DNA from: an uncultured Elusimicrobia bacterium
GTDB taxonomy: Bacteria; Elusimicrobiota; Elusimicrobia; 2-01-FULL-59-12
Assembly: GCA_963702895.1 (NCBI GenBank)
Contig: OY969767.1
Coordinates: 384,001 to 448,000, forward strand
DNA length: 64,000 nucleotides
Direction: 5' to 3'
Numbering within the stretch: the first letter of the stretch is position 1; each line of letters starts with the position of its first letter. The notes below the pieces were generated by a model. It was not told where the DNA came from. It saw only the letters and a list, made by a program, of their open reading frames with translations, and searched no databases. Position numbers and translations under genes: made by a program. Shown here piece after piece: positions 6,591 to 63,591 of this stretch.

Positions 6591-6905
6591 CGGTGCCAGT
6601 GATGCAAAATGCAAGATTGGAGAGGAAGAGTGAATAAAAAGGTGGGCTTTTCATCTAAGGGGAGAGGACCCTTATGCCCAGACCGCCACGGATCCATTTT
6701 GAAGGAGCGACGTGCAACGTTTTCAGATCTAGAAAACGGCGTGAAACGTTATCTCGAAGCCAGGCAGACTACGCTGCTTTTGAGGGCATCATGCGAGAAG
6801 CCATGAAGTGGTTAGGGGTTCAGTTATACAACTGGAACCAGATGCCGAACCATTTTCATTTCAATGTTGAAACGCCTGCATCTGCATCTTGCATCACTGA
6901 CACCG
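6591..6905 (+). mobile_element. Internally deleted TIR-flanked HUH (RAYT-like) element
   Basis: 23-bp imperfect TIRs CGGTGCCAGTGATGCAAAATGCA (6591-6613) and TGCATCTTGCATCACTGACACCG (6883-6905) enclose the transposase fragment. Confidence 0.75.
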
Positions 6906-32304: not shown

Positions 32305-32651
32305 GGCTTGAGTCATCCGGCTCGAATGTAGCGCGCCTTGCGTTCCAGAGTAAAACGGTATCACCTATAGAATGAATTTTTGTTTTCGCAACGGTAGTGC
32401 GTTTTTTTGACTATGAGCCGGGAAAGTTCGGTTGACTGTGGTTGATCGACTGAGACATCGGGACTTTTTAGTGCCGTCATCCCCCACGGTCGTAAGTGGG
32501 GGATCTATCATATTTTTATGTCGATGATAGACCCCCGCTTACGATCCGCGGGGGTGACGTCAACAGAGCGTAATATGAAAGCGGGCCTCAAGAGAGTTAT
32601 AAACAAGGCTGTCGGTAAAGACACCTTAATAACCCCAGGAGGCCCAAAATC

Positions 32652-33695
32652 ATGATATCCATCGGCATTGATCATCACAAGAAGTATTGTCAGGTTGTGG
32701 CTATGAGGGAGTCTGGCGAGATTGTATGGGAAGGTCAAGTCCCCACACGGCGAGAAGGTCTTGCACAAGTTAAAGAGGCGATTCCTCCAGGAGAACCGGT
32801 GCAAAGTGTATTGGAATCTGGACGGAGCTGGGGCATTGCCTATGACATTCTGGAAGATCTCGGGATGAATCCGGTGTTGGCCAATCCGTACAAAACTCGG
32901 TTGATCGCGGATTCGTACATCAAGACGGACAAGATTGATGCGACGGCACAGGCGGTGTTGTTGCGATTAGGGATGACGCCGATGATTCACGTTCCCGCGC
33001 GTGACCGACGAGAGCAGAAGTCGTTATTGCGACATCGATTGTGGTTGGTCAAAAGCCAAACGCTGATCAAGAATCGGATTCATGATTTACTGGACCGGCT
33101 GCATGTGGACGTGCCCAAGCGCAGCGATCTGTTTGGGGCTCATGGGAGGGCGTGGCTGAAGGAGTTGATTCTTCCCGAGATGCATCAACACCTGCTCAAG
33201 TCGCATATGGCCTTGTTGGATGAGGTTCGGCTTCAGGTCCGAGCAACCGAAGAGTGGATTGATCGTGTCTTAAGCGAACACCCCTTACGAGAGCTTGTCG
33301 ATTCTTTTCCTGGGGTAGGCAAGATCTTGAGCGCCCTGATGTCGCTGGAAATTGACCAGATCGAGCGATTTCCGTCGGCTTCGCGCTTTGCGTCTTACTG
33401 TGGGTTGGTGTGTAGCACGTATAGCTCAGGCGGTAAAACGTACCACGGGGGATTGATCCCGTCCTGCAATCGATACCTGCGCTATGCGTTTATTGAGGCA
33501 TCGTGGACGGCTGTTCAGGTGTCTCCCTATTTTCGATCGTTCTATCAGCGTTTGAAGACACGGAAGACCGCCTCAGTCGCGATTGTGGCGGTGGCGCGAA
33601 AGATGGCAGAGATTATGTGGGTGTGCTTAAAGAACAAGCGGAAGTACCAAGAGAAAGTGTATCGATTTGGTCGAGTCGCCTTGTCGAAATCTTAA
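32652..33695 (+). CDS. IS110-family DEDD recombinase
   Basis: IGIDHH, VLESG, KTDKIDA, PGVG, YSSGGK; AGGAGG RBS. Confidence 0.95.
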   Translation: MISIGIDHHKKYCQVVAMRESGEIVWEGQVPTRREGLAQVKEAIPPGEPVQSVLESGRSWGIAYDILEDLGMNPVLANPYKTRLIADSYIKTDKIDATAQAVLLRLGMTPMIHVPARDRREQKSLLRHRLWLVKSQTLIKNRIHDLLDRLHVDVPKRSDLFGAHGRAWLKELILPEMHQHLLKSHMALLDEVRLQVRATEEWIDRVLSEHPLRELVDSFPGVGKILSALMSLEIDQIERFPSASRFASYCGLVCSTYSSGGKTYHGGLIPSCNRYLRYAFIEASWTAVQVSPYFRSFYQRLKTRKTASVAIVAVARKMAEIMWVCLKNKRKYQEKVYRFGRVALSKS

Positions 33696-33835
33696 CGGGC
33701 GGTTGCGTTTAAACTGAGCGTAAGGGACTCGACCTCGAACTATTACAGTGTCCAGACGATGTGGACGAAGAAAAGTGTGAGTTCAGCTTAACGACAAACG
33801 TCGGGGCGAACACCGAGGACGCTTACCACACTTTA
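33669..33835 (+). ncRNA. Predicted seek/bridge RNA of the IS1111-type element
   Basis: Stem GGTCGAGTC/GACTCGACC encloses GAAATCTT and AACTGA (target matches); stem AAGTGTG/CACACTT encloses TTCAG and ACGCTT (junction matches). Confidence 0.7.
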
Positions 33836-40500: not shown

Positions 40501-40702
40501 CTAACCGGAAATCTTCGGTTCATTTTTCCTCATTGTCTGAACTCGATGCACTTTTTTGTGCCGTCACCCCGGCGAAAGCCGGCCCTCCAGACGCCCGGCG
40601 GGCCGGGTCGCCGGACTTGTGGAGACCCGGGGTCCAGTTCAACGACGATGGACTGGATCCCGGTTTTCACCGGGATGACGACAACTGCAGATTCCCGGCT
40701 AA
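40501..40702 (+). mobile_element. REP-carrying MITE, intact, with CTAA duplication
   Basis: CTAA-CCGGAAATCT...AGATTCCCGG-CTAA; near-identical inverted copy at 56094-56295. Confidence 0.85.
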
Positions 40703-56093: not shown

Positions 56094-56295
56094 CTAGACG
56101 GGAATCTGCAGTTGTCGTCATCCCGGTGAAAACCGGGATCCAGTCCATCGTCGTTGAACTGGACCCCGGGTCTCCACAAGTCCGGCGACCCGGCCCGCCG
56201 GGCGTCTGGAGGGCCGGCTTTCGCCGGGGTGACGGCACAAAAAAGTGCATCGAGTTCAGACGATGAGGCAAAATGAACCGAAGATTTCCGGTTAG
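56094..56295 (-). mobile_element. REP-carrying MITE (inverted copy of 40501-40702)
   Basis: Near-identical over about 200 bp; flanks CTAG/TTAG. Confidence 0.85.
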
Positions 56296-56723: not shown

Positions 56724-59372
56724 TTGACAGACCTGCCGGCAGAACGCAAACTTCCTCCAGTCATGAACGCGCGCTGGAAGCGGAATCTGCAGCTCGTAAG
56801 CTTGCTGGGGGCCTTCACGGTTTTCACCGTGACCAGCTACTACGCCTATCGCAGCAACTACAACGTGATCGCCGTGAACCGCGGTCTCCTGGCCACCAAC
56901 CGTATCATCGATAACCTCCAGGACCTCCTGTCCCTCTTGCGCCATATGGAATCGGCGGCGAGAGGCTTCGCCTTGACTGGCCGGCCACAACAGCGGGCGG
57001 TCTACGAGAAGGACCTCCCCGAGATCGAGCGTCTCCTCCAATCCCTTCAGAACCAGCCCATGCCAAGTGCCAGGGCGCGCCAACACCTGGAGACCCTCCT
57101 TAAGCGGGCGAGTGAAAAACTGGTCTGGGCGCGCGAGGAAGTTGACGTTCGTCAAAAAAGCGGGATGGCTGCTGTTCAAGGCCTCCATCGGGAGCGGCGT
57201 GGCGAAGACCCGATGGCTGAGCTGGACTCTGCTTTCAAAGAGCTCCGGGAAGAAACCGGATCGCTTTTCGAGCAGCAGCTTCAGAATGAGGAAGCCAGCT
57301 GGCAAGACTCTAAGTTTTGGTTCGTCATACGGACCGTCGTGGTGATCGTCCTTCTCTTGCTGGTCTATTTGTTCTTGTACTGGGAGATCCATGAGCGGAA
57401 ACGAACGGAAAAGGATTTGCGGCGCGCCCAGTCCCAGCTGGGAGCTGAAAAACAGGCCTTGGACCAATACGCGATCGTAGCCGAAACCGACGCCGAGGGG
57501 CGTCTGACCTATGTCAATGATATGTTGACCCGCATTTCCCAATACAGCCGCGAAGAACTTCTGGGCCAAAATGCGCGGATATTGAATTCTGGATATTACC
57601 CGAATTCTTTTTGGGAAGTTTTGTGGAAAACGATTTCATCCGGGCGCAACTGGCATGGAGAGCTGCGCAACAAAGCCAAGGATGGGTCCTACTACTGGGT
57701 TCACAGTATTGTGGTCCCGTTCCCGGGTCCGGACGGGAAGCCGGAGAGATATCTTTCGATCCAGGTCCCCATCACCGAGCTCAAAGAGGCGGAAAAAGAA
57801 CTGAAGGCGGCCACGGAGGCGGCGGAAGCGGCGGGACGGGCCAAGGCCGATTTTCTGGCGAACATGAGCCATGAGATCCGCACGCCGATGAACGCGGTGA
57901 TCGGTATGGTCCAGCTCTTGCGCGGGACCGAGCTCACCCCGAAGCAGAAGGAATTCGCGGACATCGCCTGTCAGGCCGGGGATTCGCTCGTGGGCCTCAT
58001 CAACGATATTCTGGATTTCTCCAAGATCGAAGCCGGCAAGCTCAAGATTGAATCCATGGAGTTTGACCCGCGGGCGACGGTCCATTCGGTCATCGAAATG
58101 CTCAGCGGACAGGCCCATGCCAAGGACCTGCTCATTTCCGCCGAAATCTCACACGACGTGCCGGAGCGACTCGTGGGAGATCCCTTGCGCTTGCGCCAGG
58201 TGCTCATCAATCTCGTGAGTAATGCCATCAAATTTTCCGACAAGGGAGGTGTCCGGGTCACGGTCACGCGGCCCGACGAAACCGCTTCCCAGGCCCGCCT
58301 CCAGTTTGAGATTCAGGACACCGGCATTGGCATGAACCCTGAAACGCAAGCGAAGCTCTTTCAGGCCTTCAGCCAGGGCGACACCTCCGTCACGCGCAAG
58401 TACGGCGGGACCGGTTTGGGACTGGCCATCAGCCGCCAACTGGTCGGGCTGATGGGGGGAAAGATTGGAGTGCGCAGTCAACCGGGGCAGGGGTCGACCT
58501 TCTGGTTTGCGGTGGACTTTCCGAAACCGGCGGTCCGGCCCGAGGGCCCTCTGGTACCCGGCGGCGCCGCGCGCGAAATGTTGTCATGCTCTTTGAACGC
58601 TCAAGATCTCAGTCTACTTGTGGTGGAAGATAACCGGTTCAACCAAGTGCTGATGCAGAATCTCTTGGCGAACTTGGGGTACCGCGCGGACGTGGTTTCG
58701 ACCGGCCAGAAGGCCTTAGCGGCCCTGGGTGATCCGACCCAGCACTACGACGCTGTCTTGATGGATTGTCAAATGCCCGAGATGGATGGTTACCAGGCCG
58801 CGGCGGCGATCAGGGCCTTGGGCGGCACCGTGGCTAAGATTCCGATCATCGCGCTCACGGCCCACGCGCTTGAAGGCGACCGGGAAGAGTGCCTCGCGGC
58901 GGGAATGAATGACTACCTCGCCAAGCCTATCGATCCCCAGCGCCTGCGGGAGGTCCTTTCCCGCTGGGTCCGCGGCTTCGGCGAGCGGGAGGGCGCCAAG
59001 GCCGAAGCCCCGGCCCCACCCAAGGGCAAGGATCCGGTCGACATGTCCATCTTGCTGACTACGACGGAAGGGAATCAAGCGGGGCTTGTTCATCTGATCA
59101 CTCTCTACTTGGCCCAAAGCCGCGAAAGTATGACCAAGCTTGAGCAAGCAATCGAGGGTGGCGTGCCAGAAGAGATCCGCCGGGCGGCCCATGGCCTGAA
59201 TGGCTCAAGCGCCTGCTTCGGCGCGACCCGGATCATCCAGCCTCTGCAGGAGATTGAACAGATGGCCAAGAAGGGTCAAATCGAACCCCGGGTGAAGACT
59301 CTGCTCGCGCAGGCCCAGGAAGATTTCCGTCAGATTGAAGCGTTTGTGGAGCACTACCTTCATCCCCGTTAG
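56724..59372 (+). CDS. Hybrid sensor kinase (CHASE3-PAS-HisKA-HATPase-REC-Hpt)
   Basis: ESAARGFALTG, FLANMSHEIRTPMN, NAIKF, GGTGLGL, MDCQMP, AHGLNGSS. Start may be ATG 56763. Confidence 0.95.
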   Translation: MTDLPAERKLPPVMNARWKRNLQLVSLLGAFTVFTVTSYYAYRSNYNVIAVNRGLLATNRIIDNLQDLLSLLRHMESAARGFALTGRPQQRAVYEKDLPEIERLLQSLQNQPMPSARARQHLETLLKRASEKLVWAREEVDVRQKSGMAAVQGLHRERRGEDPMAELDSAFKELREETGSLFEQQLQNEEASWQDSKFWFVIRTVVVIVLLLLVYLFLYWEIHERKRTEKDLRRAQSQLGAEKQALDQYAIVAETDAEGRLTYVNDMLTRISQYSREELLGQNARILNSGYYPNSFWEVLWKTISSGRNWHGELRNKAKDGSYYWVHSIVVPFPGPDGKPERYLSIQVPITELKEAEKELKAATEAAEAAGRAKADFLANMSHEIRTPMNAVIGMVQLLRGTELTPKQKEFADIACQAGDSLVGLINDILDFSKIEAGKLKIESMEFDPRATVHSVIEMLSGQAHAKDLLISAEISHDVPERLVGDPLRLRQVLINLVSNAIKFSDKGGVRVTVTRPDETASQARLQFEIQDTGIGMNPETQAKLFQAFSQGDTSVTRKYGGTGLGLAISRQLVGLMGGKIGVRSQPGQGSTFWFAVDFPKPAVRPEGPLVPGGAAREMLSCSLNAQDLSLLVVEDNRFNQVLMQNLLANLGYRADVVSTGQKALAALGDPTQHYDAVLMDCQMPEMDGYQAAAAIRALGGTVAKIPIIALTAHALEGDREECLAAGMNDYLAKPIDPQRLREVLSRWVRGFGEREGAKAEAPAPPKGKDPVDMSILLTTTEGNQAGLVHLITLYLAQSRESMTKLEQAIEGGVPEEIRRAAHGLNGSSACFGATRIIQPLQEIEQMAKKGQIEPRVKTLLAQAQEDFRQIEAFVEHYLHPR

Positions 59373-59529
59373 CGACGTCACCCCGGCGGATTGTAAGTCG
59401 GCCCTCCAGACTACCGGCGGGCCGTCCGTCCTGCCGTGTGGCGGACGGGGTCTATCATCGACGAATTTGCCATGATGGATCCCGGCTTAAGACATGCCGG
59501 GATGACGGCAATTGCAGATTCCCGGTCAA
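59369..59529. repeat. CGTC REP doublet with inserted hairpin modules and MITE right end
   Basis: CGTCACCCCGGCGGATTG...GCCGGGATGACGGCAATTGCAGATTCCCGGTCAA between two convergent stop codons. Confidence 0.8.
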
Positions 59530-61067
59530 TGAGCGACTTTCGCAAGAAGCCGGCTCGTGCGCGCTAGCAGTTCCGGCGGGGAAAACGGCTTGACCATATA
59601 ATCGTTCGCACCGAGCTCAAACCCCTTCAGGACGTCCTCGCTCTGTCCCTGCGACGTCAGCATCACCACGGGAACCTCACGGAGCGCGGCGTTCGCGCGC
59701 AGTCTCCGGAGCACCTCAAAACCATCGATATCGCGCATCAGAACATCCAGCAGGATCACGGAAAATGATTTGGCTGTTGCCGTCTCCAGGACTTTCGAGC
59801 CCTCCAGGACGTGCTCGACGTCGAACCCGCGCTGTTCCAGATATTGACGAAGCAGCGAGGCGGTGAACAAGTCGTCTTCCACCACCAGAATGCTCGGTTT
59901 GGGGCACAGGGGCTGGTTCAAGGCGCTCGCCACTTTGCTGCGCCCCGAGACTTTCCCCGCGTACAGGAGCTGGTCTGCTTCTAAGATCGCCTCTTCCAGC
60001 GTCTCGTCGCCATGGACAGCCACCAGACCCGCTGAGAAGCTGACCTGAAACGTCTCGCCGTTCGGGGCGGTGAATTGCCGCAGCCGGAATTCCTCCAACG
60101 TCTTTTCGAGCATGCGCTGGCTGTCCTGAAGGCCCGTTTGAGGAAGCAGGATCGCAAACTCGTCTCCTCCCCAGCGGGCGAGCAGGTCAGACGATCGGAG
60201 CGAACGCGAAACCACCGACGCCAAGCGGCAAAGGGCGTCATCCCCCGCGGCATGCCCATACAGGTCGTTGATGGATTTGAACCGGTCCACGTCCAAGAGT
60301 CCCAGCGTCAAGGGTTGCCCCGAACGGCCGGCGAGTTGACTGGCACGCGCGAAGGCGTTCGTGAAGGCGTTGCGGTTAGGAATTCCCGTCAAGGAGTCTA
60401 AGGAAGAGCGCCGGCTTCTTTCCGCGGACCGGTGGAGTTCGGCGGCGACCAAGGTCGAGAGCGTGACGGGGTCGAAGGGTTTCAGGATATAGTCATTGGC
60501 TCCCAGGGCAAAACATTCGGTTTTGGGCTGTTGAGCGTGCTCCGCGGAAAGGACGATGACGGGGATCTCCCTGGTGTCCTCCTGTTCCCGAAGCTCAAGG
60601 AGCAAGTCGCGCCCATCGCCATCGGGAAGGCCGAGGTCCAAGAGGACCAGTGACACCTCGCGCTCGGAGAGCGTTTGGCGAGCGGCCGCGATCGAACCGG
60701 CCATCACGATGTCCCGGGAGGGAGAAGCGAGGCGCTCTTGGACCAGGGCCTGCACAACGGCATCATCTTCCACACAGACAATGAGACGCTTTCTTTCTCG
60801 CGGGGTCCGGGCAATGGCCCGGAGAATGGGAATAAACTTTTCGAGCACCCCGCCGAGTTGCTCCTCCGGCGCTTGTTCCAGGATCCGGGACATGGCTTTC
60901 ACTTCCGGGTGTTGACTGAGCCCTTCGGTGGCGCGGAGCGACCGCGCGAGTCTTCGGACGGCGCTTGCGGCCCCCGGCTCCCTGCGGCCAAGCGCCTGGC
61001 GGGCCATCCGCAGGGCGCTCACCCGCGAGGCCAACCCGTCACGACCCCAATTCATGTAATCGATCAT
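59526..61067 (-). CDS. Diguanylate cyclase (degenerate Hpt-REC-GGDEF-REC)
   Basis: DSLTGIPNR, DVDRFKSIND, RSSD I-site, RWGGDEF; two receiver domains with Asp. Confidence 0.92.
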   Translation of the reverse strand: MIDYMNWGRDGLASRVSALRMARQALGRREPGAASAVRRLARSLRATEGLSQHPEVKAMSRILEQAPEEQLGGVLEKFIPILRAIARTPRERKRLIVCVEDDAVVQALVQERLASPSRDIVMAGSIAAARQTLSEREVSLVLLDLGLPDGDGRDLLLELREQEDTREIPVIVLSAEHAQQPKTECFALGANDYILKPFDPVTLSTLVAAELHRSAERSRRSSLDSLTGIPNRNAFTNAFARASQLAGRSGQPLTLGLLDVDRFKSINDLYGHAAGDDALCRLASVVSRSLRSSDLLARWGGDEFAILLPQTGLQDSQRMLEKTLEEFRLRQFTAPNGETFQVSFSAGLVAVHGDETLEEAILEADQLLYAGKVSGRSKVASALNQPLCPKPSILVVEDDLFTASLLRQYLEQRGFDVEHVLEGSKVLETATAKSFSVILLDVLMRDIDGFEVLRRLRANAALREVPVVMLTSQGQSEDVLKGFELGANDYMVKPFSPPELLARTSRLLAKVAH

Positions 61068-61381
61068 AGAGTTTGGAGAACCATCCCCCGAGGATCCTGG
61101 AGTAACTCCTCATGTCCGACGATCATCGCTTGGCCCACTTCGAATACCCCCATGGAACATTGGCTGTCGCTTGCAGCCTATGGAAGGTTAACGTGCCTTA
61201 ACACCTGCGGCAACTTAAATCGGCCTCAAATCGAGACAGATCATCAATATCTATTGATATTTGAATGAGTTTTGTGAGGGGCTCAGGAAGGCCATTGCCC
61301 TCCGAGAGGAAAATCAAGCCAGGAAGTACCGGACTAACCGGGAAACTGCAGTTGCCGTCACCCCGATTTCTATGACCTCGG

Positions 61382-62407
61382 TCAAGCATTTTTTAGGATC
61401 CGAGGATTGACTGACCTATAGTCAGCAAGATACGGTGACTTTGTGCGCAGTACGGCACAGATAATGCGCAAGAGTTTGTTGGCAATGTTGTTGAGCGCCA
61501 AGCGTTTGGCTTTTCCGGCTTGTACTTTTCTTTCAAAGTAGTGCCTGAACTGCTGATGATGTGTGCGAAGGGATCGGGCTGCCAGGTGCAATAGCTTGCG
61601 GATGATGTCCGGACCGATCCCGCGAGAGCTTGCATTCTTGCGCACGGAAGTTCCGCTGGAGTGTTCGAGTGGGCACATGCCCAAATACGAGGCGATGCGG
61701 CGGGGTTCCAGGGATCGCGTAAAGCCTTGGCTGATGACCATCAAATGGGCCGTCAAGAGTCGGCCCACCCCAGGGATGGTGAGCAGCAAGCTCACCATGG
61801 GGCCAATGGTGGGGTGGTTTGAGATCAGTTGATCCAAGGCCTGATCGATTTTTTTGATCTGTTCTTTGAGATGGCGGATGGTGTCCAGGAAGCTTTGTTC
61901 GGCGAGGATCGTGCGAACGACTTTCCGGCTGATGGCCGACAAGGCATTTTGATTGGCGGTCATCTGGCCGGTCAGCTGCTCGCGCGTCGTCAGAAGAACA
62001 CGGACTTGTTCGATCAAGGCTTCCGAGGGTTTCCAGAACGCGAGTTGATCGAAAAAGCGCCAGGCATATTCGGCGAGCTGGCGGCTATCGATGGGGTCGC
62101 TTTTGGCTCCCAGGGGGTGAAAGGCGCGTTTGGTTTTATGCGGCGCCTCCACCGACACCGGATAGCCTTTGGCACAGAGCCAGTAGCAGAGCTGCTCCGC
62201 ATAAACACCGGTGGCTTCCATGCAGACCACGGTATTGGTGGAATCGACTCCGCGTTTCTTAAACCAGGCTTCGAATTCCTCAAAGCCGGCGGGTGTATTG
62301 GCGAGCGTCTGATGTTTGGAATACTTTTGTTCGGCTGAGCTGTAATGTGTTGCGCTGAAGGTTTGATCGGCGATATCAACGCCTATGTAATGGAGAGGTG
62401 GGTTCAT
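61382..62407 (-). CDS. IS110-family DEDD recombinase
   Basis: YIGVDIA, CMEATG, KSDPIDS, IPGVG, HSSGTS; AAGGAG RBS before ATG 62407. Confidence 0.95.
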   Translation of the reverse strand: MNPPLHYIGVDIADQTFSATHYSSAEQKYSKHQTLANTPAGFEEFEAWFKKRGVDSTNTVVCMEATGVYAEQLCYWLCAKGYPVSVEAPHKTKRAFHPLGAKSDPIDSRQLAEYAWRFFDQLAFWKPSEALIEQVRVLLTTREQLTGQMTANQNALSAISRKVVRTILAEQSFLDTIRHLKEQIKKIDQALDQLISNHPTIGPMVSLLLTIPGVGRLLTAHLMVISQGFTRSLEPRRIASYLGMCPLEHSSGTSVRKNASSRGIGPDIIRKLLHLAARSLRTHHQQFRHYFERKVQAGKAKRLALNNIANKLLRIICAVLRTKSPYLADYRSVNPRILKNA

Positions 62408-62424
62408 AAGGCTCCTTTTTGTAA

Positions 62425-62598
62425 GTGCCGACATTCGTGATGCGAGCTTTGCCTATTAAGGGTTTTTATGACATCACTTCTATCTAGCTTTGGATCACGA
62501 AAGAATGGGGTCTTTACCGGGGTATGGTTTTCACCTTGGCGAAAGTTAGACTTATTCCATTCTTGTCGGTGTCTTCTTCTAGAGTCTACAAAGACTCG
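62425..62598 (-). ncRNA. Predicted bridge RNA
   Basis: 5' hairpin, then a target loop with CTTTCGCC and ACCCCGG and a donor loop with ATAGAAGT and TAATAGG, closed by CCGACA/TGTCGG. Confidence 0.85.
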
Positions 62599-62766
62599 AG
62601 AAAAGTCTAATAGGCGAAAGCCGGCCCTCCAGACGCCCGGCGGGCCGGGTCGCCGGACTTGTGGAGACCCGGGGTCCAGTTCAACGACGATGGACTGGAT
62701 CCCGGTTTTCACCGGGATGACGACAACTGCAGATTCCGGGCTAACGGTGTAAGGAAGTGGTCTTGA

Positions 62767-63489
62767 TCAGTCCAGGCGATAGCCGAAGCCGATGACGGTT
62801 TTGATTCGGCTGGAAAAGGATTCTCCCAGTTTCTTTTTTAGGCGGGAGACGTGGACTTCCACCGTGTGGGGATCGTTGTAGGTCTCTGGCTCATAACCCC
62901 AAACGCTTTTCAGAAGCGTGAGGGGGGAAAGGATGTTCTTGGGTTTCCGGAGGAGCTCCATCAGAAGGTCAAATTCCTTGCGGGTCAAGGCGACATCCTT
63001 GCCTTCGACCTGCACGCGGCGCTCCGTGACGTTCAAAGTGAGGTTGTAATAGCGGAGCGTTTGCTCCAGCTCCTCCGGCGCTTTGACCCGCCGGAGCACC
63101 GCCTGAATCTTGGCCAGAAGCAGGTCCGGGTTCAGAGGCTTGAGGAGATAGTCGTCCGCCCCGCCTTGCAGGCCGTCGACCACGTCTTCCTGCTCCATCC
63201 GTTCGCCCGAGATCAGGATCACGGGAATCTTTTCGGCCGCCGGATTTTTCTTCAGGGCGGCGCAGATCTCCACCCCGTTTTCCTTTTCCAGCAGCACGTC
63301 CATGAGCACCAGATCAGGACGCTCCTTCAGCACAAGGGGCAGCACTTCGGAGCCACGGCGGCAAACCGTGACGAGGCAGCCGGCCTTGGTCAGCCAGGTT
63401 TTGGCCATGTCCCGAAGCACGGCATCATCATCGGCGATCAGAATACGAGTGGGCGATGTCACAAGATTGATTTTATCAAAGACGATCAT
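62767..63489 (-). CDS. OmpR/PhoB-family response regulator
   Basis: Receiver domain plus LTRKEFDLL...VWG...VEVHVSRLKKKL...GFGYR. Confidence 0.93.
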   Translation of the reverse strand: MIVFDKINLVTSPTRILIADDDAVLRDMAKTWLTKAGCLVTVCRRGSEVLPLVLKERPDLVLMDVLLEKENGVEICAALKKNPAAEKIPVILISGERMEQEDVVDGLQGGADDYLLKPLNPDLLLAKIQAVLRRVKAPEELEQTLRYYNLTLNVTERRVQVEGKDVALTRKEFDLLMELLRKPKNILSPLTLLKSVWGYEPETYNDPHTVEVHVSRLKKKLGESFSSRIKTVIGFGYRLD

Positions 63490-63591
63490 ACGACATGACA
63501 CAACATTGCACGAAATCAGGACCCCAAGGTCCCTCACCGGCCGCGCATTATGAAGGCAGGGACGACCAGAAGCAGGAAATCTTTAGAGGTA

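Follow-up and report, generated by a model that had tools for sequence, protein, structure and literature searches.

The window, the whole 64,000-nucleotide stretch of DNA analysed here, comes from an uncultured Elusimicrobia bacterium and contains an intact, recently mobile IS110-group bridge recombinase, whose left end would specify a two-loop guide RNA aimed at a REP repeat and whose core has C at position 9, with CC in the target and TC in the donor. The probability of this reading is put at about 0.8. The intact gene, the site-specific copies, the complementarity of the guides, their covariation and the register of the core are read directly from the DNA.

The genome searched for copies is one contig of 2.72 Mb. 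It contains five copies of the element with no differences between them, all at the same base of a CGTC-type REP and all with identical junctions, CTTTCGCC/TATTAG on the left and ATAGAAATC/GGGGT on the right. Because the five copies are identical, movement is likely to have been recent. Insertion at unrelated sites, which the earlier sequence-only reading had named as grounds for its own refutation, is not found among them. That reading had given the element the span 61334-62744; an IS110 element is there, but the span includes REP flanks, and the IS proper is 61365-62612 (Table 1). The non-coding ends measure 205 nt on the left and 17 nt past the stop codon on the right, and a sub-terminal inverted repeat, GTC/GAC, is present. 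By its layout, with a long left end, a short right end and a 2-3 bp sub-terminal repeat, the element is assigned to the IS110 group and not to the IS1111 group.

Table 1. Coordinates of the element, its predicted RNA and its REP targets, in window positions.
Feature	Position	Strand	Details
Empty exact target in REP	40566..40578	-	Near-identical uninterrupted REP copy
Empty exact target in REP	56218..56230	+	Near-identical uninterrupted REP copy
Right target arm (positions 10-14) and GACG tag of split REP	61356..61364	-	
IS110-group element, 1248 bp (single shared core C counted once)	61365..62612	-	5 identical copies, identical junctions
Right end	61365..61385	-	-35-like hexamer 61385-61380 overlapping stop codon; inverted-repeat half GTC 61376-61374; left donor 61373-61367; donor core TC 61366-61365
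Recombinase CDS, 341 aa	61382..62407	-	RuvC-like DEDD domain (D11, E64, D104, D107), coiled coil, Tnp domain (S251)
Probable basal helix around both loops	62428..62569	-	62569-62564 with 62433-62428
Predicted donor-binding loop	62435..62500	-	Outer stem 62500-62494/62441-62435; inner stem 62489-62486/62448-62445; left guide 62483-62475; right guide 62458-62452; handshake 62451-62450
Predicted target-binding loop	62501..62564	-	Outer stem 62564-62557/62508-62501; inner stem 62551-62548/62513-62510; left guide 62546-62538; stem-loop 62535-62526; right guide 62523-62517; handshake 62516-62515
5' hairpin of predicted bridge RNA	62582..62597	-	Variable among orthologues, outside covarying consensus
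Right donor and flanking motifs	62604..62612	-	Right donor 62612-62608; inverted-repeat half GAC 62607-62605; -10-like hexamer 62609-62604
Left target arm, positions 1-9 of 14-bp target	62613..62621	-	Ends in CC core
Left part of composite REP (head-to-head dimer)	62613..62744	-	Intact partner hairpin 62699-62722; near-identical uninterrupted copies elsewhere

The left junction is also spanned by a freshwater-sediment contig (run X1, 62485-62669) with two differences, which may not be independent of the source of the genome. A circle joint was not seen in the low-depth contigs of four sequencing runs, and such contigs cannot show absence. Signalling genes make up the neighbourhood (56724-63537), namely a hybrid histidine kinase, a response-regulator diguanylate cyclase and an OmpR-type regulator. 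The latter ends 154 bases upstream of the IS in the same direction and could read through into the predicted bridge RNA; a same-strand frame lies just upstream in at least three of the other four copies.

The recombinase probably starts at 62407 and not at the ATG at 62434, because a ribosome-binding-like AAGGAG precedes it at 62417-62412. Its sequence matches PF01548 and PF02371, both above the Pfam cut-off, and this combination of a DEDD domain with a PF02371 domain bearing the catalytic serine identifies it by homology as a member of the IS110 family. IS621 and ISCro4 are its only sequence matches in the PDB, and they are also the top Foldseek matches (TM 0.70, approximately 26% identity) of an AlphaFold model with pLDDT 83. 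Residues D11, E64, D104, D107 and S251 align with the catalytic residues of IS621 and are conserved in relatives. The wedge positions H274, L275 and R278 are less hydrophobic than in most relatives, H274 and R278 being atypical (Y or M is usual). Among the best 120 of 1704 protein matches, the closest two are 87% and 85% identical and the next are at 65% and below. The sequence-only reading had called the element an IS621 orthologue with its own target. An IS110-group bridge recombinase with its own REP target is borne out by the Pfam and structure matches, by the five copies at one base and by guide-target covariation in orthologues, but the protein is a distant relative of IS621 (~26% identity) and belongs to a separate clade with TC cores.

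Comparative evidence comes from a profile of 46 proteins, which matched at least 377 metagenome loci; the best 80 of these (44-59% identical) were retrieved. Together with this element and one genome match they make 82 loci, 66 of which could be parsed; the other 16 had no target loop on the contig (8), no left junction (5) or no right junction (2), or were cut short (1). Three parsed loci were dropped, L022 and L031 as parse slips (TC/TC by eye) and L085 for one C missing at the right end, and the final set comprises 63 loci, which form 40 clusters at 90% RNA identity. Because the parsing anchors (TCATAG, TTAGAC and AAGTCTA) were taken from this element, there is some selection in the -10 hexamer, the letters of the inverted repeat and the left boundary. 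An empty site was found for 4 of the 63 loci, most orthologues being present as single copies without one. In other searches, genome contigs queried with the single protein gave one distant locus, and 100 related genomes gave one homologue, truncated at the left end. No homologue was found at E 1e-80 in 300 genomes of the phylum, and plasmid matches were all near 30%. Some irregularities occur in the set. One extra left-donor base is present in 12 of the 63 loci, and L023, L025, L034, L035, L036 and L062 are among the loci with donor oddities, in some of which the right donor guides pair just five bases or look interrupted. L037 (117-327) has a tandem duplication of about 22 bases in the stem-loop of the donor loop.

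The 205-nt left end folds with z = -3.69, and none of 200 shuffles folds as well. In the minimum-energy fold of the single sequence, part of the target guide is paired internally, and it is the orthologue alignment that supports the open loops; a constrained fold with open guides costs about 9 kcal/mol more than the free fold and does not recover the donor-loop hairpin. In the alignment of 40 left ends, six helices form two large internal loops, each with an inner stem-loop. The helices comprise 28 pairs, 22 of them changed on both sides, and 94.4% of the paired cells can pair, as compared to 79.5% when shuffled and at most 45.8% when the partners are slid. A further helix probably encloses both loops, as suggested by duplex energies which average -13.3 kcal/mol in the 40 clusters with their own flanks, -8.5 with swapped and -6.3 with shuffled ones; in this element it is weak (-5.1, with the window used). 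Rfam has no model for this RNA, and the sole match of an Rfam scan was one at chance level to the REP hairpin (E 0.46).

The guides read by eye in the sequence-only reading (target left 62545-62538, target right 62523-62517, donor left 62483-62476, donor right 62458-62452) lie where it had put them, as do its quoted motifs and three stem pairs, and the fold that it proposed for the left end is upheld by stems, target guides and handshake bases that covary in the 40 clusters. The left target guide is identical to the target arm over the quoted stretch, but position 1 is mismatched in the wider guide. Both donor guides pair with the circle junction, less perfectly than had been claimed: the left has 7 of 8 bases identical and one G-T wobble, with position 9 unpaired, and the right has six Watson-Crick pairs and one wobble. 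Both target guides together were not found in any of 20000 dinucleotide shuffles of the left end. Across the 40 clusters, left target guides match their own target at 4.8 of 7 positions (3.1 when shuffled) and right target guides at 4.7 of 5 (2.9 when shuffled), values reached in 0 of 5000 shuffles, a count that overstates the significance because the clusters are related. Left guides correspond to the bottom strand and right guides to the top strand of target and donor, the strand pattern by which the left end is classed, from its predicted pairing, as a bridge RNA. The handshake bases are crossed, the donor-loop base pairing with target position 7 in 36 of 40 clusters (1 of 40 for cognate DNA) and the target-loop base with donor position 7 in 34 (3 of 40 for cognate DNA). 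This element is included among the clusters whose handshake bases match the non-cognate position 7.

Three registers of the core are possible, since target and donor share only one C. With the shared C as position 9, target and donor are identical at position 9 in 63 of 63 loci, at position 8 in 54, at position 7 in 4 and at position 10 in none, and position 9 is C on both sides in all 63. Only this register gives a duplicated dinucleotide (54/63) and a differing position 7 (59/63). With it, a 3-bp inverted repeat directly adjoins the 14-bp donor on both sides in 50 of 63 loci, as compared to 0 of 63 for either shifted register, and 12 of the 13 loci without the adjoining repeat have one extra left-donor base. 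IS621 likewise has a 3-bp inverted repeat around its donor (PMC11208160), and its top strands are cut after position 9 (PMC11208158). The register with the shared C at position 10 was rejected, as the adjoining repeat is found in 0 of 63 loci. It is very improbable that the register is off by one in the other direction, with an ordinary CT core in the donor and CG in the target. The donor junction does contain CT at that place, and CT is the rule in IS621 (PMC11208158), but position 9 would then be common to target and donor in 0 of 63 loci, and no locus would retain the flanking inverted repeat (0/63). Position 7 would be identical in 54 loci, an identity that prevents exchange in IS621. Moreover, the junctions would follow the bottom strand, contrary to the published top-strand exchange, and published input data centre a clade member on TC (PMC11208160). 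The CC/TC register of the sequence-only reading is thereby favoured over both shifts, and the comparison of loci supports TC as the core of the clade, with CC in the target and TC in the donor of this element. The bases truly common to its target and donor amount to one C. The narrow features of the IS621 type, namely a CT core with T at position 9 common to target and donor and an Asn84, are replaced here by the C-at-9 core and by A88.

A CC target with a TC donor is found in 9 of 63 loci (6 of 40 clusters), including this element, and the reverse in none. In a quick tree the CC/TC state needs five changes, at least four of which are forced by well-supported branches. The mismatch appears programmed and not accidental, because all nine CC loci have a left target guide ending in CC and because empty CC sites exist: 37 CC and 3 TC empty sites are available to this element, and L009 and L055 also have empty CC sites in their flanks. 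The right target guide ends in A, matching the donor T, in 8 of the 9 CC loci. The right donor guide ends in G in 5 of them (4 of 6 clusters) as compared to 0 of 34 TC clusters (Fisher p = 1.6e-4 before allowing for kinship), and this G accompanies the CC target on at least two separate branches, L040 being apart from L002, L041, L055 and L081. This pattern tips the balance slightly in favour of several relatives reading position 8 cross-wise, like an extra handshake base, which would fit the structure of IS621, where exchange brings each right guide into pairing with the incoming core (PMC11208158).

The present element is the sole CC locus of the nine that is not cross-wise in the target loop, where its position-8 base matches its own target. 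Both of its right guides carry G at position 8, which forms a full pair with C and a wobble with T. On exchange the donor loop would go from six pairs and a wobble to eight pairs, and the target loop would keep its seven pairs and wobble with the wobble moved; a net push toward insertion is expected, because the donor loop gains pairing and the target loop count is unchanged.

Alternatively, the bridge mechanism may be the same and the position-8 difference a tolerated drift, with a one-base core, a loosely read position 8 and no programmed third handshake. This explanation is given a little less than an even chance. Four of the nine CC loci (L009, L010, L014 and L016) have no matching donor-loop G, three identical TC loci have U at that position, the two G bases of this element are neutral by wobble, and the first core base of IS621 is known to be less conserved (PMC11208158). 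Drift accounts poorly for a donor-loop G that accompanies only C targets and has arisen on separate branches, and for a target-loop base that is matched to the donor in nearly all CC loci.

The protein offers a possible reason for the freedom at position 8. In IS621, N84 reads the base opposite this position (PMC11208158). The sequence E87-A88-P89 stands here at the place of I83-N84-P85 in IS621, and Asn is found at the N84-equivalent site in 0 of the best 120 of 1704 protein matches and in 0 of 66 loci, and Glu beside it in 114 of those 120. Loss of N84 would free core position 8. That E87 helps to read C9 is a guess, as the AlphaFold model cannot place E87 against DNA. The wider proposal that the element represents a widespread uncharacterised clade, in which one C effectively makes up the core, C stands in place of T at position 9, and position 8 may differ and be read cross-wise as a third handshake, freed by the loss of Asn84 beside a conserved Glu, is regarded as evenly balanced.

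The target is a 14-bp site within a REP. Both perfect empty targets reported earlier for the window are present (Table 1), and with one further site carrying one mismatch they make three, a number reached in 0 of 100 shuffles (mean 0.20). The genome has 37 exact 13-base empty sites, all followed directly by the REP tag GAC or AAC, and eight of them lie inside long open frames according to a crude test in which such frames cover 81% of the genome. A census found 121 hairpins tagged CGTC or TGTC, arranged as head-to-head pairs, the commonest having a GAAA loop on an 8-bp stem. Insertion falls in the 3' arm of the hairpin, five bases ahead of the tag and always on the strand in which the loop reads TTTC. 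In the split REP of the window the 5' arm is degenerate. The repeat has the CGTC tag, 8-bp stem, 4-nt loop and head-to-head dimers by which the CGTC-1 REP family was described (PMC3733652). The term IS110 is absent from the main text of that paper. In the genome, a search for Y1 (HUH)/RAYT proteins gave a short Y1 transposase-like fragment as its sole match (window 6719-6889, just above the Pfam cut-off), with no CGTC REP near it.

Among orthologues, insertion five bases before a TGAC tag is found at 39 of 63 loci. The clade thus seems, from the loci compared (L008-L087), to follow repeats of the CGTC/TGTC type across hosts while its guides are rewritten. It is unlikely, although conceivable, that REPs are chosen mainly by hairpin structure or protein contacts, with RNA pairing secondary. 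All 37 exact sites lie in REPs, so target sequence and structure are inseparable in this genome; the same tag follows the site in those 39 orthologues, and a target stem-loop adds specificity in ISPpu10 (bioRxiv 10.64898/2026.03.19.712850). One low-depth contig also seems to have the same junction despite five altered guide bases. A choice by structure is opposed by the guides, which covary with differing targets in the 40 clusters, and by the five copies, which agree in loop variant, arm and orientation, as expected from the left guide, although other loops are found in 30 of 67 empty hairpins of the target type. The contig in question (run X2, depth 2.4) has a near-identical left end with five adjacent changes at 62542-62546, in the 5' half of the left target guide, and an almost unchanged REP flank; it possibly represents natural guide drift or reprogramming.

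Other insertion sequences of the genome are also found at palindromes. Two IS1111-like variants, 83% identical to each other, are present in five copies, each a few bases away from a CGTC REP or another palindrome (window ~32460-33830, in the 417210 region of contig C1, and C1 646591, 672057, 2232820 and 2428042). A second IS110-group element has three copies of about 1.26 kb near C1 130438, 180973 and 1125705, all within a different palindrome family, and its junctions look like a CT core by eye.

The preferred reading, that of a REP-aimed bridge recombinase, implies the following cycle. Joining of the element ends as a circle would create a sigma-70-type promoter: rebuilt circle junctions carry TTGACN, 17 or 18 bases and TAGAYT in 40 of 40 clusters (18 bases here), with the -10 letters partly selected by the anchors, and a promoter scan of the linear element gave no such promoter. 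The left end would then be transcribed as a two-loop bridge RNA, whose structure and guides follow from the covariation. Its target loop would read the 14-bp site over the loop and 3' arm of the CGTC-1-like REP hairpin, on one strand only, and its donor loop would read the circle junction. By analogy with IS621, the top strands would be cut after position 9 and swapped, aided by the handshake pairs at position 7, and the gain of pairing in the donor loop after exchange would favour insertion. The final junctions presumably copy the top strand, which would explain why every CC/TC element retains C at the left and T at the right, so that its donor is again TC. A junction promoter, a bispecific RNA, serine-linked top-strand exchange, handshake and insertion bias are known from relatives (PMC11208160, PMC11208158, PMC13626964), as are top-strand excision and integration (bioRxiv 10.64898/2026.08.31.748434; 10.1101/2025.10.25.684509).

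Bridge recombinases are under development for genome writing, and those characterised are bound to CT cores (more weakly GT, AT and TT) identical in both partners. In one 2026 paper the CT preference is described as a constraint and mining is called for; in another, two guides are run at once, for which orthogonal cores are needed. A natural scaffold with C at position 9 and full-length right guides is available in this element and some 40 relatives. Since target and donor naturally differ (CC/TC), the strands are marked, and junction sequences could tell double-strand exchange from top-strand copy-and-paste. If the single-C core and the cross-wise position 8 hold true, they would break the design rule of identical NT cores, supply cores orthogonal to that of IS621 and give natural evidence for top-strand copying; confirmed at the bench, they could widen the sites reachable by such genome-editing tools.

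In IS621, T at position 9 is almost invariant, and the cores tested were CT, AT, GT and TT only (PMC11208158, PMC11208160); engineering filters require identical cores in both partners (bioRxiv 10.1101/2025.05.14.653916). Cores other than CT, and insertion without duplication (ISEc21, PMC11187229), are known elsewhere in the family, and REP targeting is known for IS621 (PMC11208160) and ISPpu10 (bioRxiv 10.64898/2026.03.19.712850). A large survey permits cores of any length, with no discussion of them found in its accessible text (bioRxiv 10.64898/2026.10.21.760802). A literature search, in part of accessible portions of papers, gave none on a natural TC, CC or mismatched core; a TC-core orthologue may be among the 72 screened or the 86 published models. 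The sequence seq4586 in Supplementary Data 2 of PMC11208160 has the same donor ends as the clade and is centred on TC in target and donor, being TC/TC and not CC/TC. It is one input line among some 5,485, and no discussion of it was found in the accessible text of that paper.

The repeat targeted here is like the CGTC-1 REP family in tag, stem length, loop length and dimer layout (PMC3733652). Among IS110-group elements, ISPpu10 of P. putida shares the left-end bridge RNA, the many identical REP targets and the target hairpin (bioRxiv 10.64898/2026.03.19.712850). It differs in its CT core and in a structural gate shown by experiment. ISEc21 (PMC11187229) has an upstream guide RNA and inserts without duplication, and CazIS110 (bioRxiv 10.1101/2025.10.25.684509) has an upstream guide RNA and works chiefly via the top strand, in keeping with the one-way junctions of the present element; the targets of both differ, and the accessible parts of these two sources do not describe a cross-wise reading of position 8. 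The closest known systems are IS621 of E. coli and ISCro4/IS622 (PMC11208160, PMC11208158, bioRxiv 10.1101/2025.05.14.653916). They share the DEDD and serine recombinase fold, the long left end with two guide loops, the 14-bp target and donor, the handshake at position 7, the junction promoter, the 3-bp inverted repeat round the donor and a REP target, promoter and RNA being predicted in the present case. In contrast to both, the element is only ~26% identical in protein, has C instead of a near-invariant T at position 9 and a position 8 that differs between target and donor, and carries a natural 7-base right target guide, a contiguous right donor guide and a probable basal helix round both loops. 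Compared to IS621, it also has A88 in place of N84, beside a conserved E87, and uses a CGTC-type REP instead of the E. coli REP. The mechanism is already known, and what is new is the C-at-9 core with one shared base and, plausibly, a third handshake position.
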